From: an uncultured Gammaproteobacteria bacterium
GTDB lineage: Bacteria > Patescibacteriota > Patescibacteriia > SG8-24
Assembly: GCA_964491475.1 (NCBI GenBank)
Contig: CAZBFO010000001.1
Span: 110,720-174,719 of the forward strand
DNA: 64,000 bases
Direction of reading: 5' to 3'
The position numbers were made by a program, and so were the translations under genes. Positions 18,617 through 56,700 of the stretch are shown one piece after another. The notes beneath the pieces are model-generated. The model was not told the DNA's origin. It saw only the letters and a list, made by a program, of their open reading frames with translations, and did no database searches. Within the stretch, counting starts at the first letter, position 1; each line of letters starts with the position of its first letter.

Positions 18617-18688
18617 AATCGTGCAGGCTTTCTATACTGGAGTTGAGGTAACCGCGCACGGTTCTCGTGCGAGTTGACCAAGCATACC

Positions 18689-21388
<2,700 letters not shown>

Positions 21389-29688: not shown

Positions 29689-29703
29689 CCAAAGGCACAG
29701 CTC

Positions 29704-35168: not shown

Positions 35169-35936
35169 CTATCGGTAGTGGAGTTTGGCCAGGAAATCGG
35201 CCGCACCGACGTTGAAATCGGACAGCAGCTTGGTATCCGCCCCCAGGCTCCCCATGAAGAACGTGCCCTGCGAGGCGATGAAGACGATGCCCAGCACCAC
35301 CATGAACGCGGCGGCCACGGCATTGGTCGAATGCACCGAACGTTCCTTGCCGACCAGCGTGAAGGTCCACAGTTTTCCCTTGAGCGCCGGATGATGGAGG
35401 AACTTGGTCCTGTCGGCAACGAAGGCCAGCGCCAGCAGCGGCGTCGCCAGTCCCAAGCCGTAAGCGGCCAAAATGAAGAACGAGAACAGGCGGTGCGGCT
35501 CCATTGCCGACAAGGCGAACACCAGGCCGAGCAGAGGCGCCGTGCAGCCAGCCACGGTGAAACCGAAGACGATGCCGATCAGATAGGACGAGAGCGCGTC
35601 ATGGTGAAAGCCGCGTTTGGTCAGAAATTGCGGTACGGGGACGTGAAGACCGCGTCCGGCCAAGGCGTAAGCGGCGAGGCCGAAGAACAGCATCCCGCCG
35701 ATCCAAGTCAGCTCCCGACGGTGCAGCAGCAACGGCGCCGAAATCAGGCGGATGCCGAGCCCCAGAGGAATGAACAGCGTCAGGAACCCGGCCAGGAACC
35801 AGCAGGTGGCGGCGATCAGCTCGGACCGCTTCTTGAAGGTGTACGCGAAAAAACTGGGCAGCAGCACGGCCCCACAAGGTGCGAAAAACGACAACAGGCC
35901 GGCGAGGTAGGCGATGGGGACGGCGGGAACGCGCAT
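35169..35936 (-). CDS. ccdA: cytochrome c-type biogenesis protein CcdA (DsbD-family thiol-disulfide transporter)
   Basis: LLSFFAPCGAVLLPSF and second Cys motif FTVAGCTAPLL in a 6-TM protein. Confidence 0.75.
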   Translation of the reverse strand: MRVPAVPIAYLAGLLSFFAPCGAVLLPSFFAYTFKKRSELIAATCWFLAGFLTLFIPLGLGIRLISAPLLLHRRELTWIGGMLFFGLAAYALAGRGLHVPVPQFLTKRGFHHDALSSYLIGIVFGFTVAGCTAPLLGLVFALSAMEPHRLFSFFILAAYGLGLATPLLALAFVADRTKFLHHPALKGKLWTFTLVGKERSVHSTNAVAAAFMVVLGIVFIASQGTFFMGSLGADTKLLSDFNVGAADFLAKLHYR

Positions 35937-36034
35937 AGACACTACCGATGGTAGTTCAGTTGCACCTTGGCGGCAAGCGGAAATTATCAACAACGAAACC
36001 TCCGAGCGCATCGGAGGTCTTCGCGATCGGCAGC

Positions 36035-40249: not shown

Positions 40250-40296
40250 GAAATGGCCTTTTGGGCCGTTCGCTTACTCCTAAATCGTTCATCGGT

Positions 40297-40722
40297 ATGA
40301 TGAAGAAAATGTGCAACGTTCATAAGGTCGCCTGGTGCCTGCTGCTGATCGGCGGCCTCAACTGGCTCCTCGTCGGCATCTTCCAGACTGATCTCTTCGC
40401 CATGCTCGGCCTCGGCGGCGGCTTGGTCGCCCGTGCGGTGTATGTCCTCGTCGGTCTCTCGGCGGTCAGCATGCTCGGCATCAAGAAATGCTGCATGAAA
40501 GACAGCTGCACCTGCGGCGAGAAGGGCTGCGAGGAGTGCGGACCGATGAACAAGGAGAAGGCCATGGCGATGATGAAGCCGTGCGCCTGCGGTTCGGGCA
40601 AGCCGGGCTGGCAGTGCTGCATGAAGGGCGAAGCCGAGAAGATGAAGGGCATGCCCTGCTTCTGCGGTTCGGGCAAGAAGGTCGAGGACTGCTGCATGAA
40701 GAGCCCCGAGACGCACCAATAA
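40297..40722 (+). CDS. DUF378 membrane protein fused to Cys-rich metallothionein-like C-terminal domain
   Basis: HKVAWCLLLIGGLNWLLVGIF...LVGLSAV (DUF378), then KKCCMKDSCTCGEKGCEECGP...KPCACGSGKPGWQCCMKGE...MPCFCGSGKKVEDCCMK (16 Cys in about 75 aa). A TTG at 40261 is possible. Confidence 0.65.
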   Translation: MMKKMCNVHKVAWCLLLIGGLNWLLVGIFQTDLFAMLGLGGGLVARAVYVLVGLSAVSMLGIKKCCMKDSCTCGEKGCEECGPMNKEKAMAMMKPCACGSGKPGWQCCMKGEAEKMKGMPCFCGSGKKVEDCCMKSPETHQ

Positions 40723-40732
40723 GAACGATGTC

Positions 40733-40765
40733 ACCGCCCCGCTTTCCGCGGGGCGGTTTTGTTTT
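40733..40765 (+). terminator. rho-independent terminator
   Basis: ACCGCCCCGC-TTTCC-GCGGGGCGGT followed by TTTTGTTTT. Confidence 0.8.
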
Positions 40766-40817
40766 CCCTGATTGCCAGTACCCCGGGCGTTTGCTATCAC
40801 CAATACGAGGAGTTCCG

Positions 40818-41000
40818 ATGCGCTACTTTTATGCGGCCGTCGCGTTCCTGGTCGCCGGCGGCATTTCGGTCTTTTTCGATTACGGCAGCATGGCGCCCTA
40901 CTTGGTGGCCCAAACGTGCGTCTTGGGGGCGACAGTCACGCTGTTCCTGGGCACGTTGCACCTGAACGACGCCCGCAGAAATGGCGACAAAAAGCCCTGA
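40818..41000 (+). CDS. small 2-TM membrane protein (60 aa)
   Basis: GAGGAG RBS 7 nt upstream; two hydrophobic helices; own terminator. Confidence 0.45.
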   Translation: MRYFYAAVAFLVAGGISVFFDYGSMAPYLVAQTCVLGATVTLFLGTLHLNDARRNGDKKP

Positions 41001-41003
41001 ACG

Positions 41004-41030
41004 AGCCTCGCCGTCGGCGGGGCTTTTCCT
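41004..41030 (+). terminator. rho-independent terminator
   Basis: AGCCTCGCC-GTC-GGCGGGGCT followed by TTTCCTT. Confidence 0.55.
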
Positions 41031-41105
41031 TATCGCGGCCCCTTGGACAAAGGCGCGGCGCCTGCTAGCATGGTTACTATTGGCTCTTTCGCATTCGGAG
41101 GACGC

Positions 41106-41390
41106 ATGCCCAAAGGATACGTCAGCGCGCGAGCGTATCGCGGCGTACTGATTTTCGCCGCATCTGCCAGTTTTCTGTGCGGGATGGCCCTCTTCCTGAC
41201 CGGACACCAGCTCGGCGGCACCGTCGCCTTCCTTTCGTCGATCGGTTTCGGGGTACTGCTGTTCTTCAGCATCGTCGGCGCGAATAACCGTGCCATCGAC
41301 GAAGAGCAAGAAGACGCCGAGCGCGAACGCGCCAAACGGAAGAAGGCCGAAAAGCCCAAGCAGCCGCCCAACTACAAAGATCTCAACTGA
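41106..41390 (+). CDS. small 2-TM membrane protein with charged C-terminal tail (94 aa)
   Basis: GGAGGA RBS; two TM helices; KR/E-rich tail (EEQEDAERERAKRKKAEKPKQ). Confidence 0.45.
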   Translation: MPKGYVSARAYRGVLIFAASASFLCGMALFLTGHQLGGTVAFLSSIGFGVLLFFSIVGANNRAIDEEQEDAERERAKRKKAEKPKQPPNYKDLN

Positions 41391-42851: not shown

Positions 42852-43046
42852 ATGGATCCCATCTTCGAACCGGCATGGGTCAACTACCTCACGCCCATCA
42901 GTGACTACGCCGGGTACGGCCTCATCGCCGTCTTCGCAGCCTCATTCGTCTGGACCTGCGCCACGCTGGGCGGCATGGTCTCGCGGGCCGGCGAGATCGA
43001 TAAGGCAGAAGGGAATGCCGACCAGACCAAGGACGACGCAAAGTAG
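42852..43046 (+). CDS. small membrane protein (64 aa)
   Basis: Strong AAGGAAGGAG RBS; one TM helix (YGLIAVFAASFVWTCATLGGMV); 14 nt after the previous stop. Confidence 0.45.
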   Translation: MDPIFEPAWVNYLTPISDYAGYGLIAVFAASFVWTCATLGGMVSRAGEIDKAEGNADQTKDDAK

Positions 43047-43091
43047 TCCAACCGCAACGATATTGACCTTTTTTCCCGGTCATGATTAAAT

Positions 43092-43119
43092 CCTAGCAAT
43101 CAGCTAGGATTTTCTTTTT
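43092..43119 (+). terminator. rho-independent terminator (possible operator overlap)
   Basis: Perfect palindrome CCTAGC-AATCA-GCTAGG followed by ATTTTCTTTTTG; it abuts the GTG start of the Rrf2 regulator gene. Confidence 0.6.
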
Positions 43120-43557
43120 GTGCTAAAAGTCCCCCAAAAAGCCGACCATGCCCTGCTGCTGATGCGCCATCTGGCCGTCAGGCACGCCGCCAAACAGCCG
43201 CTGTCCCTCGAGGACGTGGCCAAGGCCGAAGGCATCTCCCAGGGATACCTCGAAGAGGTGGCCCGGCTTTTGCGTTCAGCCAAGCTGGTCGAGGGGCGCC
43301 GCGGCATCGGCGGCGGCTATGTGCTTTCGCGCGATCCTCAAGACGTCACCGTGGCCGACGTGGTCACGGCCATCGAAGGCCCCAAGTGGACCGCAGAATG
43401 CCTCGGCGAATCCAAGCGCCCGCGCGTTGCCGCGCACGACGTCCTGTGGCGCAAAGTGCAGGGCCAGGTGATGACCATGCTTCGCGGCATGACCATTGCC
43501 GACGTCGCCGAGGAAGCCGCCGCCCAGGCCAAGCGCGCCGAGACGCTGACCAAGTAA
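43120..43557 (+). CDS. Rrf2 family transcriptional regulator (IscR/SufR-like)
   Basis: GTG start. N-terminal wHTH (ADHALLLMRHLA...LSLEDVAKAEGISQGYLEEVARLLRSAKLVEGRRGIGGGY). Immediately upstream of sufB. Confidence 0.85.
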   Translation: MLKVPQKADHALLLMRHLAVRHAAKQPLSLEDVAKAEGISQGYLEEVARLLRSAKLVEGRRGIGGGYVLSRDPQDVTVADVVTAIEGPKWTAECLGESKRPRVAAHDVLWRKVQGQVMTMLRGMTIADVAEEAAAQAKRAETLTK

Positions 43558-43558
43558 T

Positions 43559-44956
43559 ATGGAAACGACTCTCGATCCCATCCGCGCGGTCTACGACGAC
43601 CACTCCAGCGCGAAAGTGAAGTACGCCGCGCCCGAAGGCCTCTCCGAGGAGATCGTGCGCGAGATTTCGCGTCAGAAAAACGAACCGGACTGGATGCTGG
43701 AGAAGCGCCTGCGCGGCCTTGAGCTGTTCCTGCAGACCCCGATGCCGTCATGGGGCCCGTCTTTGGAAAATCTCGACCTCAACAAAATCGTCTACTACGT
43801 CCGCCCCGACGCCAAGGAATCCAAGACGTGGGATGAGGTGCCGGCCGACATCCGCGCCACTTTTGAAAAGCTGGGCATCCCCGAAGCCGAACGCAACTCG
43901 CTCTCCGGCGTCGGCGCGCAGTTCGATTCCGACGTGGTCTACCACAGCCTCAAGAAGGAGTGGGAGGAGAAGGGCGTGATTTTCGAGAACATGGACGTGG
44001 CCGTGCACCAGTATCCGGAGCTGGTGAAGAAGTACTTCATGACCGATTGCATCCCGGTGTCGGATCACAAGTTCATCATGCTCCACGCTGCCGTCTGGAG
44101 CGGGGGAACGTTCATCTACGTGCCGCCCGGCGTGAAGGTCAACGTGCCGCTGCAAGCGTACTTCCGCATGAACCAAGAAAAGGGCGGACAGTTCGAGCAC
44201 ACTTTGATTATCGTCGATGAAGGCGCGTCAGTTGAATACATCGAGGGCTGCAGCGCGCCGCGGTTCGCCGCCAGCGCTTTGCACGCCGGTTGCGTGGAAC
44301 TGCACGTCAAGAAAAACGCGCGCATCAAGTATTCCTCGATCGAGAACTGGAGCAAGAACACGTTCAACTTGAACACCAAGCGCGCGGTTGTCGAGGCGCA
44401 CGGCACCGTCGAATGGCTCAACGGCAACATGGGCTCGGGCACGACCATGCTGTACCCGTGCAGCGTGTTGCGCGGAGAGGGCGCGCATTCGGAATCGCTC
44501 GGCGTGGCCTTCGCCGGTCCCGGACAAAACCAGGACACCGGTTCCAAGGTGATTCACGCGGCGCCGCACACCACTTCGGTCATCCGCGCCAAGTCCATCA
44601 GCAAGGACGGCGGCATCTCGACCTATCGCGGCCTGGTACGCGTGACGGCTGCCGCCAAGGAGACGGCTTCTTCCGTGAACTGCGACGCGCTGCTGATGGG
44701 TGACGGGTCGGTCTCGAACACCTATCCGTTCATGCGCGTGGACACCTCCGCCGTGGACGTGGCGCACGAGGCGACCGTGGGGCGCATCGGCGAAGAGGAA
44801 ATCTTCTACCTGATGTCGCGCGGACTGTCCGAGGAGAAGGCGCTAAAGATGATCGTCAGCGGATTCATCGAGCCGGTGACGAAACGGCTGCCTCTGGAGT
44901 ATGCGGTGGAGCTCAACAAACTTATTGAGTTGGAGATGACGGGGTCGGTGGGATAA
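43559..44956 (+). CDS. sufB: Fe-S cluster assembly protein SufB
   Basis: 465 aa, conserved SufB C-terminal beta-helix region (GRIGEEEIFYLMSRGLSEEKA). Confidence 0.9.
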   Translation: METTLDPIRAVYDDHSSAKVKYAAPEGLSEEIVREISRQKNEPDWMLEKRLRGLELFLQTPMPSWGPSLENLDLNKIVYYVRPDAKESKTWDEVPADIRATFEKLGIPEAERNSLSGVGAQFDSDVVYHSLKKEWEEKGVIFENMDVAVHQYPELVKKYFMTDCIPVSDHKFIMLHAAVWSGGTFIYVPPGVKVNVPLQAYFRMNQEKGGQFEHTLIIVDEGASVEYIEGCSAPRFAASALHAGCVELHVKKNARIKYSSIENWSKNTFNLNTKRAVVEAHGTVEWLNGNMGSGTTMLYPCSVLRGEGAHSESLGVAFAGPGQNQDTGSKVIHAAPHTTSVIRAKSISKDGGISTYRGLVRVTAAAKETASSVNCDALLMGDGSVSNTYPFMRVDTSAVDVAHEATVGRIGEEEIFYLMSRGLSEEKALKMIVSGFIEPVTKRLPLEYAVELNKLIELEMTGSVG

Positions 44957-44964
44957 ACCCGTTG

Positions 44965-45110
44965 TGCGCGTGTTCTGCTCATGCGGGCCGCGGGTCCTGT
45001 CAGGGGCTCACCCCACGAGTGCTCGGTCGCCTGCGGGCGACACTGCGCGCTCGCGGGGTCCCCAGCCCCTGCCACCCGCGGTTCGCATATGGAGAGCACG
45101 CAACGCATTT
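44965..45110. repeat. palindromic intergenic repeat element, copy 1 (between sufB and sufD)
   Basis: About 90-bp core (GGGTCCTGTCAGGGGCTCACCCCACGAGTGCTCGGTCGCCTGCGGGCGACACTGCGCGCTCGCGGGGTCCCCAGCCCCTGCCACCCGCGG) is near-identical (1-2 mismatches) to the reverse complement of 53911-54000. Flanks are partially similar. Internally self-complementary. Confidence 0.8.
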
Positions 45111-46316
45111 ATGAACGACACATTGATGGCACAACCCAAGACGCTTGAAGGCCTCCGCAAAGCGGCTGCGGCCGACTTTGCGTTGGCGCACGATGTTTCG
45201 CTCAAGTACGGGTTGAACGTGTTTTTTTCGCCGAAGACTGTTGCGATGCCGTTTGGTGATGTGGACTCTGCTGTCCGCTCGGAGATTCGGTTGCCGGAGG
45301 GATTGGCGGCTTACTCATTTGAGGAGTGCATGAATGATCCGAAGATGGCCGAGGCGGTGTTGAACGCGCTGGCGGCCAAGGACATTCGTGCCGAGAAGAT
45401 TGCGGCTTGGCATCGCAGTCAGGCGGGAGTCGGGACGGCCATCGTGGTGCCGCCGAATTTTTCTTCTGATGAGCCGATTCGAATTGATTTGGTGCTTCGA
45501 GATGCGCGACGCGTAGAGAATGTGTTGATCGTGGCATGCGAAGGCGCGCGCGTGACCGTGGTGGAGCATCTTCGTTCAGAGGCTATGCCGGGAAGCGCGG
45601 CAGACGACGCCGCCTCCGCTATAAAGAATGACGAGGTGAAACTTCGCAGCGCAATCACAGACATCATCGTGCATCCCAACGCCAAGGTCACGCACATCTC
45701 GCTGCAGGATTTTGCCGAGAACGTCACCGACCTCTCGCTCAAGCGCGCCAAAGTGCAACGCGACGCTTCCATGACTTGGATCGAGTGCGTCTTTGGCGGC
45801 GGGTTCAGCCAGTCGCTGGTCAGCACCGAACTGTTGGAGGAAGGCGCGTCGACCGGATCGAAGACGCAGTTCTTCGGTCGCGCCTCGCAGAAGTTCGATC
45901 TGTATCAGCACGTTCGCCACGCGGCTTCGCACACGCACTCCGAACTCCGCACTCGCGGCGCGCTGATGGATACGGCCAAGACCATTTATCGAGGCCTGGT
46001 TCGTATCGAGAAGGGGACCAAGGGCTGCATCGGCCATCAGAAGGAAGACACCTTGCTTCTCGGCGAGAAGGCCGAGATCGATGCCGTGCCCAATCTCGAA
46101 ATCGAATCCGAGGACGTCCGCTGCGGCCATTCCGCCTCGGTCGGGCGCATCGACAAGGACAAGCTGTTCTATCTGATGTCGCGCGGGCTCGATGAAGGAG
46201 CGGCACGCAAGTTCTTGGTCGAAGGCTTCTTTGCGCCTATCGTCAACGAGATGCGCGCGGCCGGCCTTGAAGACCGCGTGCAGTGCATCATCGACGAACG
46301 TATCGCGCCGTTGTAG
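45111..46316 (+). CDS. sufD: Fe-S cluster assembly protein SufD
   Basis: 401 aa SufBD-family paralog following sufB. Confidence 0.85.
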   Translation: MNDTLMAQPKTLEGLRKAAAADFALAHDVSLKYGLNVFFSPKTVAMPFGDVDSAVRSEIRLPEGLAAYSFEECMNDPKMAEAVLNALAAKDIRAEKIAAWHRSQAGVGTAIVVPPNFSSDEPIRIDLVLRDARRVENVLIVACEGARVTVVEHLRSEAMPGSAADDAASAIKNDEVKLRSAITDIIVHPNAKVTHISLQDFAENVTDLSLKRAKVQRDASMTWIECVFGGGFSQSLVSTELLEEGASTGSKTQFFGRASQKFDLYQHVRHAASHTHSELRTRGALMDTAKTIYRGLVRIEKGTKGCIGHQKEDTLLLGEKAEIDAVPNLEIESEDVRCGHSASVGRIDKDKLFYLMSRGLDEGAARKFLVEGFFAPIVNEMRAAGLEDRVQCIIDERIAPL

Positions 46317-46342
46317 GTGTCGAGAAGAAACATGACACGCTT

Positions 46343-47575
46343 ATGAAAGACACGCTCGACGTCGCAAACCTCCGCAAGGACTTTCCGATGCTGTCGCAGA
46401 ACGACGGCAAGCGTTTTGCGTACCTCGACAGCGCCTCGTCTTCCCTGACGCCCGCACCAGTGCTGGCGGCCATGGACGACTACTACCGCACCTACCGCGC
46501 CAACGTGCATCGCGGCATGTACAAGATCAGCGAGAAGGCCACCGAGCGGTACGAGGAAGTCCGCCGCAAGATCGCCGACCTCATCCGTGCCGACGAGAAC
46601 GAAATCGTCTTCACCCGCGGCACCACCGAAGGGATCAACATGGTGGCGCACTCGCTCGCCAAGCGGCTCGGCAGCGGTGACGAAGCGGTGCTGACCGTGA
46701 TGGAGCATCACGCCAATCTGGTTCCGTGGCAGCAGTACGCCAAGGAATACGGCTTTGCGTTGCGCTTCATTCCGCTCACAGCCGACTACCAACTCGACAC
46801 GGAGGCGGCGCAAAGGATGATCACTCCGGCAACGAAGGTCGTCGCGGTCACCTACGCCTCGAACGTGCTGGGCACGATCGTTCCCGTCGCAAAAATTGCC
46901 GCTCTTGCTCGTGCGGTCGGCGCAACCGTCGTCATCGACGCAGCGCAAGCCGCCGGCCACGCGCAAATCGACGTCCGCAAATGGGACTGCGACTTCCTGG
47001 CGTTCTCCGGACACAAGATGTTCGGCCCCACCGGCACCGGCGTGCTCTACGGAAAGAAGGCCGCTCTCGAAAAACTGACGCCGATGCAGTACGGCGGCGA
47101 CATGATCAAGGAAGTGCGCTTCGAGGACGCCACTTGGAACGAGGTGCCGTGGAAATTTGAGGCGGGTACGCCGAACATCGCAGGGGTTATCGGACTTGGT
47201 ACTGCAGCCGATTACGTTCGTGCCATCGGCGTCGACATGATTGGCACGCACGAAACTGCGTTGGCCAAAGATGCCGTCGCCAAACTCACGGCCGTTCCGG
47301 GCGTTCGAATCATCGGTCCCGGAGCGGACGCGGAACGCACGGGCGTGGTCTCCTTTGACGTCGAAGGCATTCACCCGCACGACGTCGCCACCATTCTTGA
47401 TGCCGAGGGCGTCTGCGTGCGCGGCGGCCATCACTGCGCCATGCCGTTGCTGCAGTCGCTCAAGCTGGTCAACGGCACCACGCGTGCCAGCTTCGGGGCA
47501 TACAGCACCGCCGAAGACGTCGGCGCGCTCGTGGCAGGCATCATCAAGGCGCGCAAAATCTTCAAACTCGCCTGA
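46343..47575 (+). CDS. sufS: cysteine desulfurase SufS (class V aminotransferase)
   Basis: PLP-lysine SGHKMFGPTG; RGGHHCAMP active-site Cys loop; 410 aa. Confidence 0.9.
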   Translation: MKDTLDVANLRKDFPMLSQNDGKRFAYLDSASSSLTPAPVLAAMDDYYRTYRANVHRGMYKISEKATERYEEVRRKIADLIRADENEIVFTRGTTEGINMVAHSLAKRLGSGDEAVLTVMEHHANLVPWQQYAKEYGFALRFIPLTADYQLDTEAAQRMITPATKVVAVTYASNVLGTIVPVAKIAALARAVGATVVIDAAQAAGHAQIDVRKWDCDFLAFSGHKMFGPTGTGVLYGKKAALEKLTPMQYGGDMIKEVRFEDATWNEVPWKFEAGTPNIAGVIGLGTAADYVRAIGVDMIGTHETALAKDAVAKLTAVPGVRIIGPGADAERTGVVSFDVEGIHPHDVATILDAEGVCVRGGHHCAMPLLQSLKLVNGTTRASFGAYSTAEDVGALVAGIIKARKIFKLA

Positions 47576-47576
47576 T

Positions 47577-47999
47577 ATGGAACTCTACATTGACTCCAGC
47601 GACGACCTCATCGGCGACGAGCAGATGTACATGGAGAACATCCTCGACCACTCCAAGCATCCGCACAACGCCGGCACCATCCCAAACGCCACCTTCATGC
47701 ACCAGGAGGTCAACACCTCCTGCGGCGACGCCATCTCCATCTACGTGAAGCTGGCCGACGGCAAAGTGACCGACGTGAAGTTCGACGGTCACGGTTGCGC
47801 CATCAGCCAGGCAAGCGTGTCGATGCTCACCGACTTCGTGAAAGGCAAGACGGTCGCGGAACTGCAGGCGCTGACCAAGGAAGACATCTTCGGCCTGCTG
47901 GGAATCACTGTCGGCATGACGCGTCTCCGCTGCGCGTTGCTCGGACTCAAGACGTTGGAAATCGGACTCGCGGAACACCTGAAGGACTCTGGCACATAA
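47577..47999 (+). CDS. sufU: SUF-system Fe-S scaffold SufU/IscU-like (NifU family)
   Basis: Conserved Cys in SCGD, GHGCAIS, RLRCALL motifs. Confidence 0.85.
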   Translation: MELYIDSSDDLIGDEQMYMENILDHSKHPHNAGTIPNATFMHQEVNTSCGDAISIYVKLADGKVTDVKFDGHGCAISQASVSMLTDFVKGKTVAELQALTKEDIFGLLGITVGMTRLRCALLGLKTLEIGLAEHLKDSGT

Positions 48000-48011
48000 C
48001 TCTCCATCCCT

Positions 48012-48737
48012 ATGTCACTCAAAATCGCGAAACTCCACGTCTCCCGCGAGGGCAAGGAAATCGTCAAAGGCGTGTCGCTCTCCGTTGCGCCCGGCGAAGT
48101 GCACGCGCTGATGGGACAGAACGGCTCCGGCAAATCGTCACTGGCCAACGCGCTGATGGGCCATCCCAAGTACGCCATCACCGACGGCACCATCAGCATC
48201 GACGACGAGGGCCTGACAGCGCTCAAACCGAACGAGCGCGCCGCCAAGGGCCTGTTCCTGTCGATGCAGCATCCGCCCGAGGTCTCCGGCGTGACCGTGG
48301 CGCACTTCCTCCGCGTCATCACCACCACCGCGCGCCGCGAACCGCTCTCGGTTGCCGATTTCCGCAAGCTGCTGATGGAAAAGATGGCCGACCTCAAGAT
48401 CGACGGGGCCTTCATGCACCGCGGCCTCAACGAAGGCTTCTCCGGCGGCGAAAAGAAGCGCATGGAAATCCTGCAGCTGGCCCTGCTTGCGCCGAAATAT
48501 GCCATACTGGACGAGACCGACTCCGGCCTGGACGTCGACGCGCTCAAGATCGTCAGCGACGGCGTGAAGAAGCTGCGCGAGCAGGGGATGGGCGTGCTGC
48601 TCATCACTCACCACACTCGCATCTTGCAGGATTTGGTTCCTGACAAGGTCCACGTACTCAAGGACGGCCTAATCGTGGCCGAGGGCGGCTCGGAACTGGC
48701 CTCGGAAATCGAAAAGGAAGGATTCACCAAGTGGTAA
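48012..48737 (+). CDS. sufC: Fe-S cluster assembly ATPase SufC
   Basis: Walker A GQNGSGKS, signature FSGGEKKR, Walker B ILDETDSGLD. Confidence 0.9.
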   Translation: MSLKIAKLHVSREGKEIVKGVSLSVAPGEVHALMGQNGSGKSSLANALMGHPKYAITDGTISIDDEGLTALKPNERAAKGLFLSMQHPPEVSGVTVAHFLRVITTTARREPLSVADFRKLLMEKMADLKIDGAFMHRGLNEGFSGGEKKRMEILQLALLAPKYAILDETDSGLDVDALKIVSDGVKKLREQGMGVLLITHHTRILQDLVPDKVHVLKDGLIVAEGGSELASEIEKEGFTKW

Positions 48738-48747
48738 ACCGACACTT

Positions 48748-49038
48748 ATGGTCATCAAGGACGAAGTCATCGAAGTGCTGAAGAACACACTCGACCCCGA
48801 ACTCGGCATCGACCTGTACACTCTCGGGCTTATTTACGATGTCGACATGGACGAGAAGAACCAGAAGCTGGTCATCAAGATGACCTTCACCACGCCGCTG
48901 TGCCCGTACGGCCCGCAGATGGTCGGCGAACTCAAGAGCAAGTTCCGCGCGCTGGGCCTCGACGACGTCAAAGTGGACGTGGTGTTCGACCCGCCATGGG
49001 AACCCAGCGAGGAAGTCCGCGCGATGTTGGGGGTGTAA
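48748..49038 (+). CDS. sufT: SufT/DUF59 (MIP18 family) Fe-S assembly protein
   Basis: 96 aa with the TPLCP motif of DUF59. Confidence 0.8.
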   Translation: MVIKDEVIEVLKNTLDPELGIDLYTLGLIYDVDMDEKNQKLVIKMTFTTPLCPYGPQMVGELKSKFRALGLDDVKVDVVFDPPWEPSEEVRAMLGV

Positions 49039-49043
49039 CCCGA

Positions 49044-49071
49044 AAACGCTCCGATTACGGGGCGTTTTTTG
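49044..49071 (+). terminator. rho-independent terminator ending the suf operon
   Basis: AACGCTCCG-ATTA-CGGGGCGTT followed by TTTTTG. Confidence 0.7.
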
Positions 49072-49074
49072 CAT

Positions 49075-49103
49075 TTGACAGCATCGGGCCTGGCTGGTTA
49101 ATT
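49075..49103 (+). promoter_or_regulatory. sigma-70-type promoter (TTGACA-N17-TTAATT)
   Basis: Upstream of the coiled-coil protein gene. Confidence 0.4.
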
Positions 49104-49139
49104 GGCGGGCGTTTTCGTTCATGCTAACGTATAAGCGCT

Positions 49140-49520
49140 ATGCGAAACGAAGAGAAAATCATCGGGATGATTTCGGACTTGGGCAATCAGGTGAACCGCA
49201 GGTTCGACGCGCTCGAAGCCAAAGTCACCGGAATGAACGCGGATATCGGCGATCTGAAAACTGATGTTGCTAGCCTGAAGTCGGACGTCGCAGTGCTCAA
49301 ATCCGACGTCGCAGTGCTCAAATCCGACGTCGCAGTGCTCAAGTCAGACAATGCCGATCTGAAAGGCTCCCAAGCTGCCATGACCGAAGGCATCTCGCAT
49401 CTCTACGACCGCATGGACTCACTCGAGACGTACGTGCGCGAAAAGGTCGCCACCAAAGACGACCTCGCCGCCCACGGCTTCCGCATCACCAGGCTCGAAC
49501 GGCTTCAGGGCATAGCCTGA
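49140..49520 (+). CDS. coiled-coil protein with tandem heptad repeats (SDVAVLK x3 plus degenerate flanking copies)
   Basis: 126 aa. Perfect 21-nt tandem repeats encode KSDVAVL three times, flanked by TDVASLK and SDNADLK. Confidence 0.55.
   Translation: MRNEEKIIGMISDLGNQVNRRFDALEAKVTGMNADIGDLKTDVASLKSDVAVLKSDVAVLKSDVAVLKSDNADLKGSQAAMTEGISHLYDRMDSLETYVREKVATKDDLAAHGFRITRLERLQGIA
49260..49364 (+). repeat. 21-bp tandem repeat (about 5 units, 3 perfect) inside the CDS
   Basis: gtcgcagtgctcaaatccgac repeated three times exactly, with degenerate flanking units. Confidence 0.8.
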
Positions 49521-49537
49521 ACCAATAGGAGGACTCG

Positions 49538-49975
49538 ATGAAAATGCGACGCGAATCCAACGGCATCTACGTGGTCAGCCTCGAACGGGGCGACGACCTT
49601 CGTTCCTGCGTCGAAAAGATGGCGCTCGACGCTGACATCGTCGGCGGCCGCGTCACGGCCATCGGCGGGGTCGAGAACCCGGAGCTCGGCTGCTACGATC
49701 TGGCCACCAAGTCGTACTCGCGCAAGACCTTCAACGGCATCTACGAGCTGGTGTCGCTCGACGGCAACCTGACCATCAAGGAAGGCAAGCCGTTCCTGCA
49801 CGTGCACGCGGTCATCTCCGGTGCCGACTTCGTGGCGTACGCCGGCCACCTGTTCGACTGCAAGGTCGGACTGGTCGCCGAAATGTTCATTGATCCGCTC
49901 GGCGCGCCGCTGGCGCGCCTGCTGTGCGAAGACATCGGCCTGTCGCGCTGGGAGCCGCTGGGCGTCAAGCAATAG
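49538..49975 (+). CDS. PPC (DUF296) domain DNA-binding protein
   Basis: AGGAGG RBS; GIYVVSLERGDDL...GVENPELGCYD...KPFLHVHAVIS pattern of the plants-and-prokaryotes-conserved domain. Confidence 0.75.
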   Translation: MKMRRESNGIYVVSLERGDDLRSCVEKMALDADIVGGRVTAIGGVENPELGCYDLATKSYSRKTFNGIYELVSLDGNLTIKEGKPFLHVHAVISGADFVAYAGHLFDCKVGLVAEMFIDPLGAPLARLLCEDIGLSRWEPLGVKQ

Positions 49976-49983
49976 TCACGACC

Positions 49984-50259
49984 ATGAAGAGACTCTGGTT
50001 CAGGGCAAAGTACTACGGCTACGGCTGGTATCCCGCGACCTGGGAAGGCTGGCTTTCGATCGCCGTCTGGCTGGCAGCCGTCCTCGCCGGCATGCGCCTG
50101 TTCGTCGGCGCCACCTTGGCGGACCCCACCAACTTCTGGCTGACGTTGTGCTTCGTCACTTACGTCAGCCTGCTCACCGGAGCGCTCGTCCTCCTCTGCC
50201 TCAAAAAGGGCGAAAAGCCCGGTTGGCGCTGGGGCAAGCCGAAGGAGCCCAAAAAGTAG
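49984..50259 (+). CDS. small membrane protein (91 aa)
   Basis: Two TM helices; starts 9 nt after the previous stop; ends at a terminator. Confidence 0.4.
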   Translation: MKRLWFRAKYYGYGWYPATWEGWLSIAVWLAAVLAGMRLFVGATLADPTNFWLTLCFVTYVSLLTGALVLLCLKKGEKPGWRWGKPKEPKK

Positions 50260-50266
50260 GCGCTTT

Positions 50267-50296
50267 CCCGCCCCATAAGGCGGGATTTTTCTTTTG
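50267..50296 (+). terminator. rho-independent terminator
   Basis: CCCGCC-CCATAA-GGCGGG followed by ATTTTTCTTTTG. Confidence 0.75.
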
Positions 50297-50333
50297 TGCT
50301 AGACTGCAAGCAGAACCTCTAACCCGCACCCTT

Positions 50334-50573
50334 ATGGCGCACGCCGTCACCGTCTACTCCACGCCCACCTGCCCGTACTGCAAAATGGCCAAGAGTTTCC
50401 TGGCCGAAAACAAGATCGACTTCAAGGAAGTCGACGTCTCCATGGACGACAAGGCCGCCCAAGAGATGATCGACAAGTCCGGCCAGATGGGCGTGCCGGT
50501 CATCGACATCGACGGCAAGTTCATCGTCGGGTTCGACAAGGACGCGATGAAGGCGGCGTTGGGACTCCAGTAA
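50334..50573 (+). CDS. glutaredoxin-like protein (CPYC)
   Basis: VTVYSTPTCPYCKMAK...GVPVIDIDGKFIVGFD, classic glutaredoxin/NrdH fold. Confidence 0.8.
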   Translation: MAHAVTVYSTPTCPYCKMAKSFLAENKIDFKEVDVSMDDKAAQEMIDKSGQMGVPVIDIDGKFIVGFDKDAMKAALGLQ

Positions 50574-50578
50574 GCAGA

Positions 50579-50608
50579 AACGCCTCGCGCAAATGCGAGG
50601 CGTTTTTC
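50579..50608. terminator. bidirectional terminator
   Basis: AACGCCTCGC-GCAAAT-GCGAGGCGTT followed by TTTTC; lies between convergent grx and sodA. Confidence 0.75.
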
Positions 50609-50620
50609 AATTGCGTGAGT

Positions 50621-51205
50621 TTACTTGAGCCGCGCGGCCGCACGCTTCCAATCGACGTGCTCCCAGAAACCTTTGATGAATCCGGCGCGATCGTTGCGAT
50701 GGTCGATGTAGTAGGCGTGCTCCCAAACGTCCAGCGTCAGGATCGGCCTCTTGTCAGTGCCGACCGGCGTCTCCGCGTCCTTGTATTGGGCGATCTCCAA
50801 CGTGCCGTCGGCCTTCTGCACCAGCCAGGCCCAGCCCGATCCGAACAGCGTCAGCGCCTTCTGGCCGAACTGTTCCTTGAAGGCCTCGACCGAACCGAAG
50901 TCGCGCATAAGCGCATCCGACAGCGCACCTTCCGGACCGGAGGCAGTCGGAGCAAGGCACTCCCAGAAGAACGAGTGGTTCCAATGCTGCGCGGCATTGT
51001 TGAAGACGCCGGCATCCTTGCCGCGCGAGTCTGCGACGACCTCCTCGAGCGACATGGCGGCGCGGGGCGTGTTTTCGACTGCGGCGTTGAGTTTGCTGAC
51101 GTAGGCGGCGTGATGCTTGCCGTGGTGATACGAAAACGTTTCCGCGCTCGTCCAGGCGCCGAAGGCGTTCGGAGCGTACGGGAGTTCGGGGAGGGTGAAA
51201 GCCAT
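50621..51205 (-). CDS. sodA: superoxide dismutase (Fe/Mn family)
   Basis: FTLPELPY, HHGKHH, NNAAQHWNHSFFW, DVWEHAYY motifs. Confidence 0.9.
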   Translation of the reverse strand: MAFTLPELPYAPNAFGAWTSAETFSYHHGKHHAAYVSKLNAAVENTPRAAMSLEEVVADSRGKDAGVFNNAAQHWNHSFFWECLAPTASGPEGALSDALMRDFGSVEAFKEQFGQKALTLFGSGWAWLVQKADGTLEIAQYKDAETPVGTDKRPILTLDVWEHAYYIDHRNDRAGFIKGFWEHVDWKRAAARLK

Positions 51206-51324
51206 AAGTGACGGTGATGCGGACCAGCGTCCGCGTGCGGTCATACTAACCCCGCGGCACTTCACAGGCAAGGCGCGACGTGATAGCCTCGTGCTGCCTG
51301 CGCATTGCAAGGCGAGGAGACAGC

Positions 51325-51882
51325 ATGACCGAACAATGGAAAGACGCCGCGCGCCCGAAGTACCTCGGAGCCAACCGCGACAACATCTTCGCTGACTGGG
51401 ACAAGACCTACGGCTGCGGCCACTGGCGTCTCGCCTGGCGAGTCGCCGGCATTGACGTGGACTTTCAGGGTGCCTGCGCGCTGTACGAGGACGCCTACTT
51501 CTTCTACCTGCGTCAGCACCCGCTGACGCTGCGCCGCCTGCTCCGCGATGCCAGCAACGTCTACGACGACGCCGAGAGCAACGTGCACAGCGGCTTCGAC
51601 TATGCCAAGCAGGAAACCAACCGCACCCACGTGCAGGACATCGCCATCCGGCGCTGCGTCCTCCGCCACGGCAAGTGGTTCCAAGGCAAGGAGCTGATCC
51701 AGATCCGCGACAGCATGGGCAAACACCCGCTAAGCATGGAGCTGTCGCCCGGACAGGTGCCGTTCCACCTGCCGGACCTGATCGAGCCGTACGAAGACAC
51801 CCGCCGAAACGCCCAATGGTACAAGGTGGGCTCGGTAGAGGACTTCTACCAGCGGAATCGCTACCTCCAGATTCGGACCTGA
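51325..51882 (+). CDS. hypothetical protein (185 aa)
   Basis: GAGGAGA RBS; GC3 bias; terminator after stop. Confidence 0.5.
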   Translation: MTEQWKDAARPKYLGANRDNIFADWDKTYGCGHWRLAWRVAGIDVDFQGACALYEDAYFFYLRQHPLTLRRLLRDASNVYDDAESNVHSGFDYAKQETNRTHVQDIAIRRCVLRHGKWFQGKELIQIRDSMGKHPLSMELSPGQVPFHLPDLIEPYEDTRRNAQWYKVGSVEDFYQRNRYLQIRT

Positions 51883-51892
51883 CGCTCTTTTT

Positions 51893-51917
51893 ACCGCGCT
51901 GTTGCGCGGTTTTTTGT
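51893..51917 (+). terminator. rho-independent terminator
   Basis: ACCGCGC-TGTT-GCGCGGT followed by TTTTTTG. Confidence 0.75.
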
Positions 51918-51986
51918 TACCTGATGAGCGCGGCCCAAGGGTTGCCAAACCCAAAAAAGTGTGTTACCTTCGCACAGTTATCACCT

Positions 51987-53186
51987 ATGGTCGACACCAT
52001 CATCCTGCGGACAAATGAAATCTGCCTGAAGGGGAGCAACCGCGGCATGTTCGAGCGGCATCTTTTGAATGACCTGCGGGTCCGGCTGGCGCCCATCGGC
52101 ACGTTCAAAGTGCGCGCCGACCAGGGAAGCGTTTTTGCTTTTCACGAGGGTGCATTGAGCGAAGCGCAGATCGCGGCTGCAGCCGAAGCCGTTCGCACGA
52201 CTTTTGGCGTGGCCACGATTCTGTTTGCCGCGCGCGTCGCCAAAGACATCGAAGCGATGGGCGCCGCGGCGGAAGCGTTGATCGCCAAGAGGGGAAAGAC
52301 CACCTTCAAGGTGTTCGCCTCCCGTTCCGACAAGACCTTCCCCACGCAGTCGATGGAAATTGTACGCATCGTCGGCGCTCGGTTGCTGGCTAACGTGCCG
52401 GATATCACCGTCGACGTGCGCACCCCTAAGACTGACGTGGTGATCGAAGTTGCCAAGGAGTTCGCCTACGTCGCCGTAGGCAGCGAAGCGGGCGCGGGCG
52501 GATTGCCGGGCGGCGTCGCCGGCAAAGTCGTTGCCATGCTTTCCGGCGGCATCGATTCTCCCGTGGCCGCCTGGAAGCTGATGCGTCGCGGCTGCGTGCC
52601 GGTGCTGGTGCACTTTCACAGCTATCCCTACGTCGGCGCCGAGTCCATCGACAAGGTGAAGCGCCTCGCTGCCAAGCTCGACCGGTTTTTCCCCGGCCTG
52701 ACTTTGCATCTCGTGCCCATCGGCGACGCCCAGCGCGAAATCACCGTGAAGTCCGACGAGACCATGCGCGTGCTGCTGTATCGCCGCCTGATGTTCCGCA
52801 TCGCGGAGAAGATTGCGGCACGCGAAGGCGCCTACGCGGTCGTCACCGGTGACAGCGTCGGCCAGGTCGCTTCGCAGACCATCGAGAACATCTCTGCCGT
52901 TTCCGCCGTGACTACCATTCCGACGTACCGCCCGCTAATCGGCGACGACAAGGAAGACATCGTCCGTGTTGCCAAGCGCATCGACACCTACAAGACTTCC
53001 ATCGAGCCGCACGACGACTGCTGCACGCTGTTCGTGCCGCGCCGTCCGGCCACTCGCGCCACCATTGCCGAGCTCGATACAGAAGAAGCCAAGTACGAAG
53101 TGCATGCCTTGGTCGATGCCGCGCTGGCCGCGACCGAAACCGTCGCCGTCACAAGCACGCCCGCGCGTGCTACAGTAGCCGCGTAA
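51987..53186 (+). CDS. thiI: tRNA 4-thiouridine(8) synthase ThiI
   Basis: THUMP-containing N-terminus and PP-loop SGGIDSPVAAW. Confidence 0.85.
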   Translation: MVDTIILRTNEICLKGSNRGMFERHLLNDLRVRLAPIGTFKVRADQGSVFAFHEGALSEAQIAAAAEAVRTTFGVATILFAARVAKDIEAMGAAAEALIAKRGKTTFKVFASRSDKTFPTQSMEIVRIVGARLLANVPDITVDVRTPKTDVVIEVAKEFAYVAVGSEAGAGGLPGGVAGKVVAMLSGGIDSPVAAWKLMRRGCVPVLVHFHSYPYVGAESIDKVKRLAAKLDRFFPGLTLHLVPIGDAQREITVKSDETMRVLLYRRLMFRIAEKIAAREGAYAVVTGDSVGQVASQTIENISAVSAVTTIPTYRPLIGDDKEDIVRVAKRIDTYKTSIEPHDDCCTLFVPRRPATRATIAELDTEEAKYEVHALVDAALAATETVAVTSTPARATVAA

Positions 53187-53197
53187 CCGCCGCAATT

Positions 53198-53872
53198 ATG
53201 GGAACGCTCTACATCATCGCCACGCCCATCGGCAACCTGGAAGATGCCACCTTCCGCAGCATTGAGACGCTCAAAAAGCTCGATGCGCTTTTTTGCGAAG
53301 ACACGCGCGTGACCGGCCGCCTGCTTGAGCGCTACGGCATTCACGTCCCGATGCAGTCGTACCGCGAGGACAGCCACGGCCTGAAGTTGCCGAAGATGTT
53401 GGAACTGCTCCGCGCTGATAAAACCGTCGGCCTCGTTTCCGACGCCGGCACGCCGACCATCGCCGATCCCGGTTTCCGCATGGTGCGCGACGTGCTCCAA
53501 GCCGAACCGGAAACGACCATCATCCCGATCGCGGGTGTCTCTGCCGTGACCGCCGCGCTCTCGATTGCAGGCTTCTCCGCCGACCAGTTCACCTTCATGG
53601 GTTTTCCTCCGCACAAGAAGGGCCGCAACGGCTTCTTCAAAGAAGCGCTGGATCAGTCTCGCACCGTCGTCCTGTACGAATCTACCCACCGTATCGAAAA
53701 AGCGCTCGAATCCATCAACGAGCTCGCTCCCGAGAGAAAGCTGGTAGTATGCAGGGAGCTCACCAAGATGTTCGAGACGACCTATCGCGGTATCGCTGAG
53801 GAAATCAGCACGCAACTTTCAGCCACCAGCAGTAAGGGGGAGTTCGTCATCGTAATAGAAGGCAAACCTTAA
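53198..53872 (+). CDS. rsmI: 16S rRNA (cytidine1402-2'-O)-methyltransferase RsmI
   Basis: LYIIATPIGNLEDAT...FCEDTR tetrapyrrole-methylase-fold motifs. Confidence 0.9.
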   Translation: MGTLYIIATPIGNLEDATFRSIETLKKLDALFCEDTRVTGRLLERYGIHVPMQSYREDSHGLKLPKMLELLRADKTVGLVSDAGTPTIADPGFRMVRDVLQAEPETTIIPIAGVSAVTAALSIAGFSADQFTFMGFPPHKKGRNGFFKEALDQSRTVVLYESTHRIEKALESINELAPERKLVVCRELTKMFETTYRGIAEEISTQLSATSSKGEFVIVIEGKP

Positions 53873-53884
53873 ACAAGCCTCTGG

Positions 53885-54035
53885 CGAAGTCGCGGATGCA
53901 CTCATTGCGTCACCGCGGGTGGCAGGGGCTGGGGACCCCGCGAGCGCGCAGCGTCGCCCGCAGGCGACCGAGCACTCGTGGGGTGAGCCCCTGACACCCG
54001 CGGCACGCATATATACTCCACGCACACTCCGACAA
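53885..54035. repeat. palindromic intergenic repeat element, copy 2 (between rsmI and metG), inverted relative to copy 1
   Basis: 53911-54000 is the reverse complement of 44991-45080 with 1-2 mismatches. Confidence 0.8.
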
Positions 54036-54043
54036 GCACTTCT

Positions 54044-55558
54044 ATGAAAACCTACTACATCACCACCACACTCCCATACGTTAACGCCGACCCCCACATC
54101 GGCTTCGCTTTGGAAATCATCCAAGCTGATGCGCTCGCACGTTGGCACCGCCTCCACGGCGAAGAGGTCGTGTTCAACACCGGCACCGACGAGCACGGCC
54201 AGAAGATCTACAAGAACGCCATGGAAGCCGGCATGGAACCGAAGGCCTACTGCGACATGTACGCCGCCAAGTTCCACGGCCTCAAGGATGCGCTCAACCT
54301 TTCCTACACCAACTTCATCCGCACCACCGACGATTATCACGTCGCTGCCGCCCAAGAATTTTGGAAGCGCTGCGCCGCCAACGGCGACATCTACAAGGCG
54401 CGCTACCAGACCAAGTACTGCATCGGTTGCGAATTGGTCAAGACCGATTCCGAACTGGACCACGGCAAGTGCCCGATCCACCCGAAGCTGGAAGTGGAAC
54501 TTCGCGACGAAGAAAACTATTTCTTCAAATGGTCCAACTACGGCCAGGCGTTGCTTGATCTGTACTCGGCTCGCCCTGACTTCGTCGTGCCGTCCGGTCG
54601 CCTGAACGAGATCAACTCGTTCGTCCGCGGCGGGTTGCAGGACTTCAGCATCTCGCGCCTTAAGTCAGCGATGCCTTGGGGCATTCCGGTGCCGGGCGAC
54701 GACGAACACGTCATGTACGTGTGGTTCGACGCGTTAGTGAACTATATTTCGACCATCGGCTGGCCGATCAACATGGGCAAGTTCGAGGAGTTCTGGCCGG
54801 GCGTGCAGACTGCGGGCAAGGACAACCTCCGCCAGCAGTCGGCCATGTGGCAGGCCATGCTGATGTCGGCCAAGCTGCCGCCGTCCCAGCAGATATTCAT
54901 TCACGGCTTCATCACCGCCGAGGGGCAAAAGATGTCCAAGTCCACCGGCAACGTCATCAATCCCTACGACCTCGTGACGCAGTACGGCACCGACGCCGTG
55001 CGCTACTTCCTGATGGGCGGCATGCCTTCGTACGAGGACGGCGACTTCTCCAAAAAGCTGTTCGAAGAGAACTACACCTCGAAACTGGTGAATGGCGTCG
55101 GCAACTTGGCCGCACGCACCGCCACCATGGTCGAGAAGTATTGCGAGGGCAAAGTTCCCGCCGAACAGCCTGACCGCTTCGACACCTCCGCCTTCTGGAA
55201 GGACTACTCCGCTGCCCTCGATGCCTTCCGCTTCGACGAAGCCGCCCGCGTGTTGGAGAAGTACGTCACCGCGGTTAACCAAGCCATCGACCAGGAAGCG
55301 CCGTTCAAGAAGGCCAAGGAAGGCATCGACGTGTCACCGTTCATGTACCAGCTCGCCGAGGCCCAGCGCCACATCGGCATAGCCTTACTGCCGGTAATTC
55401 CGGCTGCCGCCACCCATATTCTTGGCCAAATTTCGGTCCGCCCCGAGGATGTCCTGCTGCCGCGCGATGCGCGGTGGGGGAAGCTGGTTCCGGGGACGAC
55501 GGTGGTAAAAAGCCCGATTTTGTTCCCACGCCTTCCTGCCGTCGACGCGTCCGCTTAA
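54044..55558 (+). CDS. metG: methionine--tRNA ligase
   Basis: HIGH-class motif (PYVNADPHIGF), KMSKS, zinc knuckle CIGC...CPIH. Confidence 0.9.
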   Translation: MKTYYITTTLPYVNADPHIGFALEIIQADALARWHRLHGEEVVFNTGTDEHGQKIYKNAMEAGMEPKAYCDMYAAKFHGLKDALNLSYTNFIRTTDDYHVAAAQEFWKRCAANGDIYKARYQTKYCIGCELVKTDSELDHGKCPIHPKLEVELRDEENYFFKWSNYGQALLDLYSARPDFVVPSGRLNEINSFVRGGLQDFSISRLKSAMPWGIPVPGDDEHVMYVWFDALVNYISTIGWPINMGKFEEFWPGVQTAGKDNLRQQSAMWQAMLMSAKLPPSQQIFIHGFITAEGQKMSKSTGNVINPYDLVTQYGTDAVRYFLMGGMPSYEDGDFSKKLFEENYTSKLVNGVGNLAARTATMVEKYCEGKVPAEQPDRFDTSAFWKDYSAALDAFRFDEAARVLEKYVTAVNQAIDQEAPFKKAKEGIDVSPFMYQLAEAQRHIGIALLPVIPAAATHILGQISVRPEDVLLPRDARWGKLVPGTTVVKSPILFPRLPAVDASA

Positions 55559-55646
55559 GAGTCGCTCCACCTTGACCGCACGGGCATTTTCTGCCATAGT
55601 GCGACGTTCTTTCTTATCAGTCACAGGCACCGAGGAGAAAAAAGAA

Positions 55647-56573
55647 ATGACGTCGAAAGCCGCCTTGATGACGGTCGAAAATGCGCAGCAGCAGACGCTT
55701 GCGGACCTGCGCCGACCGAATGAGCACGTCCAGTTCGGGCACATCTTTCTGACCTTGTGTCCCGACAGGCCCCTGGACCAGCTTTGTCTCGATGACATCC
55801 TGGATACCAACTGGCAGGGCGTCGAGACCGCCGTTCGTGACGCGATCGTCCGCGTATGCCACGAAGGAGACCTCTCGTCAGGGACGCTCCAGGATACGAT
55901 ACGTCTCGTCGCGCTGGCGCTGCGGAAACTCGAGTCCGAAGATGCCCGTCTCCGCCGATTCGTGGCAGAGCATCCTCGCGTCGGCCTCATAGCGTATCTG
56001 ACGGCGCTTTTCCCCGGACCAGTGGGCGAAAGCGTGCGCAAGGTCATCGCGGCACGGCGGAACGCCGCGGCAAAGATCGTGGAGTTTGCGTGCGTGCGTG
56101 ACCGACTGTTCGAGGCTCGCATCAAGCTGGCCGAAGAGGTCGACGAGTCCCTCGACGCGCTGCTCACCAACGAGAGCGCCGAGTATCGTGAGCTGCGGGA
56201 AAGCGTCCCGCAGCTCGGCGCAGTTGCCAAGACGGCGGCCGGAATCCTTGGGGAAATCAAGGAATGGGAGGAACTCGAAGTCAGCATTGCCGATCAAGAA
56301 GACCGTCGCATCGGTGACGCCGATGCGAAGGACACCAAGCGGCTCCAGCAGCTCGGCGGCAAGCAGGACGCGTATTGCGAGTTCGCTACCGCGCACTGCG
56401 GCCAAGAGATCAATGATCTCGGCACGGTAGAAATAGCGCTCCGACAGCTCGTCGCCGAGATCAAACGGAAAACCGAACCCGTCGAACTTCGCCTGCAGGC
56501 GATGCGAGATGCCCGAAAGCGAGAGCTTTACGGCCAGGCAGCGGCGATGTTCGACGCGACTACGAACGGCTAA
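55647..56573 (+). CDS. hypothetical protein (308 aa)
   Basis: GC3-biased ORF followed by a strong terminator. No recognised domain. Confidence 0.5.
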   Translation: MTSKAALMTVENAQQQTLADLRRPNEHVQFGHIFLTLCPDRPLDQLCLDDILDTNWQGVETAVRDAIVRVCHEGDLSSGTLQDTIRLVALALRKLESEDARLRRFVAEHPRVGLIAYLTALFPGPVGESVRKVIAARRNAAAKIVEFACVRDRLFEARIKLAEEVDESLDALLTNESAEYRELRESVPQLGAVAKTAAGILGEIKEWEELEVSIADQEDRRIGDADAKDTKRLQQLGGKQDAYCEFATAHCGQEINDLGTVEIALRQLVAEIKRKTEPVELRLQAMRDARKRELYGQAAAMFDATTNG

Positions 56574-56581
56574 ATACCGCA

Positions 56582-56612
56582 CCGACCGGATACGTCCGGT
56601 CGGCTTTTTTAT
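56582..56612 (+). terminator. rho-independent terminator
   Basis: CCGACCGGA-TACG-TCCGGTCGG followed by CTTTTTT. Confidence 0.8.
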
Positions 56613-56700
56613 GCACAGACGTGGCCGCCGACGACTCCGAAAGCCCAAAAAGTGCTATACTGCCAAAAGTTACCCGTTTTGAGCCCGAAGAGCATTCCCT

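Follow-up and report, generated by a model that had tools for sequence, protein, structure and literature searches.

Two near-identical palindromic repeats in opposite orientation within gene spacers of a Patescibacteria lineage: a candidate non-autonomous mobile element

Described palindromic repeats and the element of this locus

The ERIC (or IRU) sequences of enterobacteria are imperfect palindromes of about 127 nt, present in tens to hundreds of copies. The Correia elements (or NEMIS) of Neisseria are bounded by defined terminal inverted repeats of 26 bp and duplicate a TA target, and in MITEs of the typical sort conservation is highest at the termini. REP sequences and BIMEs are smaller (20-40 nt), very numerous and often clustered, with a RAYT gene alongside; their classic effect is to shield upstream mRNA from 3′ exonucleases. 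The Rickettsia palindromic elements (RPE) form large families and are often found as in-frame insertions in protein-coding genes.

Here we describe a palindromic element that occurs twice in a window of 64 kb (the whole stretch of DNA that was analysed), once between sufB and sufD (copy 1) and once between rsmI and metG (copy 2). These flanking genes were identified with NCBIfam models and all lie on the + strand, so that both pairs are co-directional, as had been thought from the letters alone; an Rrf2 regulator gene lies directly upstream of sufB (Table 1). In a repeat search of the whole window, positions 53912-53996 were the reverse complement of 44998-45082 over 85 nt at 99% identity, and no other inverted pair in the 64 kb exceeded 35 nt at 71-81%. 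The original prediction, that copy 2 is a reverse-complement copy of the sufB-sufD element, is borne out by this search and by alignment: the similarity is neither shorter than 40 bp nor riddled with mismatches, either of which had been named as grounds for giving the claim up.

Pairwise alignment extends the near-identical stretch to 93/96 nt; the copies differ there by a single substitution and by a 3-nt indel, which reads CCT on the + strand and is present in copy 1. Over the core, indel aside, 92/93 positions are identical. Setting the limits of the core at its CCGCGG motifs gives 91 nt in copy 2 and 94 nt in copy 1, and the core has a GC content of 79-80% vs 62% for the window. Segments of 21 and 22 nt taken from the element have exactly two occurrences in the window, even with 3 mismatches, where shuffles lead one to expect 0.00-0.01, and a profile search (nhmmer --max, all filters off) found no third copy in the 64 kb. 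The two copies are 8.8 kb apart and in opposite orientations, and recognisable homology between them, core included, runs to about 140 nt. This fits the conserved unit of 90-150 bp that had been proposed, a 91-94 nt core lying inside the longer homology; the interval 53885-54035 first reported for copy 2 does enclose the element, with its core at 53913-54003 and weakly similar arms reaching to about 53891 and 54031.

Table 1. Positions in the window of the neighbouring genes, the two spacers and the parts of each repeat copy
Feature	Position	Strand	Remarks
sufB	43559-44956	+	NCBIfam
sufB-sufD spacer	44957-45110	+	154 nt; core nearly centred, 31 and 29 nt either side
Copy 1 outer arm, sufB side	44960-44987	-	complementary to the other outer arm, lengthening the palindrome
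Copy 1 core	44988-45081	-	94 nt; opposite orientation to copy 2
Copy 1 outer arm, sufD side	45082-45103	-	
sufD	45111-46316	+	NCBIfam
sufS	46283-47575	+	NCBIfam
sufC	48012-48737	+	NCBIfam
thiI	within 51675-53186	+	NCBIfam
rsmI	53198-53872	+	NCBIfam
rsmI-metG spacer	53873-54043	+	171 nt; core exactly centred, 40 nt either side
Copy 2 left outer arm	53891-53912	+	weakly resembles copy 1 arms; motif CTCAT-TGCG; lower GC
Copy 2 core (CCGCGGG...CCCGCGG)	53913-54003	+	91 nt; 80% GC; imperfect palindrome
Copy 2 right outer arm (CGCATAT...CACGCACAC)	54004-54031	+	weakly resembles copy 1 arms
metG	54044-55558	+	NCBIfam

The palindromic character first ascribed to the element was recovered in every fold that we computed. 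The sense-strand RNA folds reach -85.2 kcal/mol for copy 2 (z -5.5) and -102.4 kcal/mol for copy 1 (z -8.0), and folding either strand of either copy as DNA yields this rod-like hairpin again (z -4.3 to -5.6), so that each copy is predicted to form a rod of about 45 bp from either strand. The core stems pair CCGCGGGTG with CACCCGCGG, CAGGGGCT with AGCCCCTG, CCCCGCGAG with CTCGTGGGG and GTCGCC with GGCGAC, around a CGCA loop. Inverted repeats of 18 nt, CCGCGGGTGGCAGGGGCT and AGCCCCTGACACCCGCGG, are 94% alike and are of the kind expected at the ends of a MITE, although they are called terminal here without the true termini of the element being defined.

Of the described families, ERIC is matched in several respects: the element belongs to the 100-150 nt class, consists of one long imperfect palindrome, lies in putatively transcribed intergenic spacers in either orientation, varies in presence among related genomes, codes for no protein and lacks a clear target-site duplication. 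Unlike ERIC, it is documented here in two copies and in another phylum, and has an 80%-GC core with arms that are much less conserved; the likeness to ERIC/IRU is one of architecture alone, a relationship in sequence not being expected. With Correia elements and other MITEs it has in common a short non-coding unit, inverted-repeat ends, a position between genes that are probably co-transcribed, insertion polymorphism among close relatives and a predicted long dsRNA hairpin that RNase III could cut. It was set aside as a Correia element (CREE) proper, since the junctions have no consistent TA duplication, conservation is lowest in the outermost sequence and no cognate transposase is known. Like REP sequences it is an extragenic palindrome inside operons, but its unit of 91-140 nt, its two known copies and the lack of a RAYT or IS200-like domain among the called ORFs of the window led us to reject a REP/BIME assignment. 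With RPEs it shares the form of a 100-150 nt palindromic repeat in the small, reduced genome of a host-dependent bacterium; it differs from them in that both copies are strictly intergenic and leave the flanking coding ends intact.

Filled and empty sites

The window comes from a metagenome-assembled genome, and assemblers are known to have trouble with palindromes, so that a chimeric fold-back, or a repeat collapsed or misplaced in the contig, has to be considered. We hold such an assembly or amplification artefact to be extremely unlikely, because Logan assemblies made independently from two runs are broken within the element, which shows that it is real. Three Logan contigs, from the runs SRR12313479 and SRR12313480, match the window without a difference up to the point, within the element, at which they stop. 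One of them (L002) ends at 53941, 30 nt past the first shared base (boundary 53912), which is the branch point predicted for a k=31 graph; the other two (L023 and L024) end at 45025, 2 nt before the 45027 predicted by a two-copy k=31 model, and these early ends may hint at a third variant with the same CCT indel, or at a strain SNP at 45026. For both copies the left junction is thereby reproduced base for base in the independent assemblies of the two runs; the genes flanking the copies and those lying between them have the order and orientation seen in relatives, and the inserted sequence is not duplicated from neighbouring DNA. A consequence for the study of such genomes is that short-read assemblies break at the element.

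For comparison we used relatives whose MetG belongs to the same 90%-identity cluster (contigs L018, L019, L020 and L021) and one more whose MetG is 86% identical (L003). The best named relatives by MetG are MAGs of Patescibacteria, Parcubacteria and Uhrbacteria; at 62%, the GC content of the window is unusually high for a lineage that MetG places with Patescibacteria. The relative contigs are collinear with the window at 75-87% nucleotide identity, with conserved synteny, and the element is absent from their loci (about 50 kb). Between rsmI and metG they have 9 nt (L018, L019 and L020), 7 nt (L021) or 5 nt (L003), against 171 nt in the window, and between sufB and sufD the one relative compared (L019) has 36 nt, against 154 nt; the coding ends on both sides of the spacers are preserved between relatives and window. 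Filled sites can thus be set beside empty ones at both loci (rsmI-metG in L003 and L018-L021, sufB-sufD in L019), which is the pattern of MITE insertion polymorphism. Because the spacers measure 5-9 and 36 nt in relatives vs 171 and 154 nt here, both copies are lineage-specific insertions, made into very short intercistronic spacers in the lineage of the window only; the word 'insertions', used of them from the start, was well chosen. A search of the window flanks for a remnant of the ancestral sufB-sufD spacer gave a result indistinguishable from shuffles, 1710 of 2000 of which scored as well.

Elsewhere in the clade, another relative (L004, MetG 80% identical) has a 108-nt palindrome at 15419-15526 of its contig, with 47-nt arms at 83% (GTCATTGCGAGCGCAGCGAAGCAATCT...), in the intergenic gap of convergent genes and with more small hairpins alongside. 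It was rejected as a member of the same family, not being alignable with the element of the window; therefore long intergenic palindromes of other families exist in the clade.

The reading that we favour, and consider the probable one, is that we are dealing with a palindromic mobile element, non-autonomous and of the MITE, ERIC or Correia kind, or with the relic of one. It is short and non-coding (a core of 91-94 nt, about 140 nt in all, within spacers of 154 and 171 nt), and two copies lie 8.8 kb apart within 64 kb. It would have entered the sufB-sufD and rsmI-metG spacers of a Patescibacteria lineage, once in each orientation, having been mobilised in trans by a transposase or recombinase that may be encoded elsewhere in the genome or since lost. 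The roughly 50 ORFs of the window that were scanned have no transposase, integrase, RAYT, IS200-like or reverse transcriptase domain (Pfam or NCBIfam), and no cognate autonomous IS or transposase sharing its ends was seen in the window. A 6-nt direct repeat, ACAAGC, stands around copy 2 (53873-53878 and 54032-54037) and is a candidate target-site duplication; comparison of the junctions revealed no equivalent at copy 1, two copies being too few to fix boundaries.

What speaks against a mobile element, as far as the sequences searched would indicate, is that only two copies are documented, with no unambiguous target-site duplication and no homologue found elsewhere. The lack of a transposase or RAYT domain among the ORFs scanned, and ends that are less alike than the core, count against it as well. 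An exact 20-mer seed had one match among 185,579 species genomes (L001), a chance one that lies inside a coding region with no extended similarity; an exact 18-mer seed had 13 matches in JGI metagenomes, all by chance, with no similarity past about 19-27 nt. Four seeds tried on viral contigs gave one chance match and three empty results, a distant blastn search of plasmids gave nothing, and a six-frame peptide query, aimed at ORFs called across other copies, found nothing at E<=1 among 5.8 billion protein clusters. These searches of distribution need exact 18-20-mers or near-identical peptides and would miss diverged relatives, and it is at this stringency that the family appears, so far, to be private to the lineage. 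Full-text searches of the literature gave no paper describing MITE- or REP-type repeats in Patescibacteria (CPR).

On the present record, then, the two copies stand for a family that is new, within a kind of element that is well known. As a genomic feature the element belongs to an ordinary class, is of mild note because of its host group and leaves current understanding unchallenged. The genomes of Patescibacteria (CPR) are small and streamlined, and the recent insertion of the element into two essential operons would mean that such elements are active in the group.

The contrast between core and outer arms

Unlike the termini of typical MITEs, the outer 25 nt or so on each side of the element are only 60-70% alike between the copies, whereas the core is 99% alike; their GC content is 54-57% vs 80% for the core. 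Motifs common to the arms of both copies are CTCAT-TGCG and CGCAT...CACGC[A/G]CAC. The partial similarity of the flanks that had been noticed earlier does hold when alignments are anchored on the core (p about 0.007-0.06 vs random window segments), and, whichever way round the arms of copy 1 are taken, the right outer arm of copy 2 weakly resembles them (p about 0.007-0.009); a previous, unanchored local test of arm similarity was not significant. In copy 1 the outer arms also pair together (44968-44995 with 45074-45101, 79% complementary; p 0.012), and in copy 2 pairing beyond the core is limited to the adjoining 5-6 nt (TGCGT). Candidate end sequences of the element are CCGCGGGTGKCAGGGGCT, or the arms ATGCG/CGCAT; a search of the window for its terminal motif found the two copies only.

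Three readings of this contrast can be put forward: a younger core nested in older arms, gene conversion between the inverted copies, or selection on the core. In the first, the arms (about 25-40 nt per side) would be an older, diverged palindrome, and the core a younger mobile hairpin that inserts at palindrome centres, much as IS1397 and ISKpn1 insert into the loops of REP sequences. Such nesting would account for the gap between core (99%) and arms (about 60-70%) in identity, as well as in GC, for the central position of the core in both spacers (40/40 and 31/29 nt) and for the pairing of the copy 1 arms with each other, and both layers could post-date the split from relatives, since both are absent there. 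It would, however, need two successive insertions at each of two sites; no 'solo' outer palindrome occurs in the window, searches for ATGCG...CGCAT and CACGCRCAC having stayed at chance level, and the similarity of the arms is of modest significance. We therefore think it unlikely that the element is nested in this way.

The second and third readings can be joined in a selected, cis-acting structure, whose core would be kept by purifying selection or gene conversion and, whatever its mode of arrival, would now be functional in both operons; the hairpin might serve as a module for mRNA processing or stability, as an attenuator, or as a cruciform that binds protein. If the arms are homologous, their neutral decay by about 30-40% predicts about 30 differences in the core, which in fact shows a single substitution and a single indel; the operons that contain the two copies serve essential functions, and the hairpin is stable in transcripts of either orientation. 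These points are opposed by the opposite orientations of the copies relative to transcription, by the 5-36 nt spacers, with no hairpin, of the same operons in close relatives, and by the lack of an Rfam match, and two near-identical copies give no covariation to analyse. Recent insertion is also the simpler account of their near-identity, and selection of this sort on the element strikes us as an unlikely explanation too.

A bolder proposal is that the core is a distinct mobile hairpin, known so far from one Patescibacteria lineage and either homing into the centres of palindromes or held by selection as an orientation-independent module for RNA processing or decoupling. We rate this as distinctly improbable; if true, it would explain why the core is 99% identical where the arms have drifted to 60-70%, and such a module would act in essential operons (for Fe-S assembly, and for an rRNA methylase and MetRS).

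Transcripts, possible effects and neighbouring features

To return to the mobile-element reading, each copy separates two co-directional genes that abut in relatives, from which we infer that the copies are co-transcribed with the flanking genes. The transcript would then have its cistrons separated by a rod-like hairpin of some 45 bp (-85 to -102 kcal/mol), whichever the orientation of the element. The hairpin would be expected to break translational coupling: the element can add to spacers that measure 5-36 nt without it, and adjacent genes are then probably uncoupled in translation. By analogy with REP, ERIC and Correia sequences it could also be a target of RNase III or a barrier to 3′ exonucleases, either of which would change the relative expression of the flanking genes; the shielding of upstream mRNA that is classic for REP is the most plausible consequence here also. 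At the level of DNA, the two copies, inverted and 8.8 kb apart, provide a substrate for inverting the segment from sufD to rsmI.

The original prediction had raised two further functions, a small RNA and a terminator-like role, and neither gained ground. The sequences 3′ of the hairpins are CACGCATATATAC and TTCGCATATGGAG; because neither hairpin has a trailing T-run, the role of a canonical terminator is unsupported, and a scan of 43000-56000 placed no intrinsic (Rho-independent) terminator at either copy, so that this candidate was rejected. A small-RNA gene in duplicate (such as one for a 6S-like rod RNA), an integron attC site or a retron-like structured site would suit an intergenic, rod-like hairpin of 100-140 nt. 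Nevertheless, no Rfam family (6S, riboswitches, ribozymes and CRISPR repeats included) reaches its gathering score anywhere in the window, and a permissive local Rfam search (E<=10) stayed at chance level, its best match being the plant miRNA model MIR1151 at 21.5 bits vs a threshold of 90. Further against these structured RNAs and sites, the element is missing at the syntenic sites of relatives, the called ORFs of the window include no integrase or reverse transcriptase domain, and the scan of 43000-56000 found no promoter-like site at either copy; we judge the whole group to be very unlikely. The window has no tRNA or tmRNA.

A promoter created at the junction of copy 2 is a matter of speculation: by eye, CTGACA and TATACT stand 15 nt apart ahead of metG, a site that the promoter scan of 43000-56000 did not pick up. 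At the junction of copy 1 ahead of sufD there are only weak −35/−10 matches.

Other features of the window were noted in passing. A second lineage-specific insertion, of 1.1 kb (55560-56698), lies between metG and a CvpA-family gene, where L018, L019, L020 and L021 have about 12 nt. It contains an orphan ORF of 308 aa (55647-56573), for which there were no Pfam, PHROG or PDB sequence matches, together with a promoter-like site (55572-55600) and a hairpin followed by a T-run at about 56581-56611; it sits 1.6 kb downstream of copy 2. Between the FeS_assembly_P gene and a glutaredoxin gene (49040-50300) the gene content is unlike that of relatives: L019 has one gene of 360 aa there, and the window has a 126-aa ORF with no Pfam match, a PCC-domain gene and others. 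The Logan contig L002 starts within this region, at 49313.

The window encodes a full SUF system with its Rrf2 regulator (43120-49038), an aconitase (18674-21388) and an isocitrate/isopropylmalate dehydrogenase (17402-18616), and in alignment with relatives an ORF at 50621-51310 corresponds to their Fe/Mn superoxide dismutase gene. Three gaps between rough ORF calls, 35420-36034, 40723-41289 and 29274-29703, are unusually long (615, 567 and 430 nt) in a window that is otherwise tightly packed, and have no Rfam or tRNA matches. Lastly, in the C-terminal part of the gene for a DUF378 protein (40261-40722) there are two 52-nt direct repeats within 40578-40704, which are 75 nt apart and 79% identical, and encode a duplicated Cys-rich motif.
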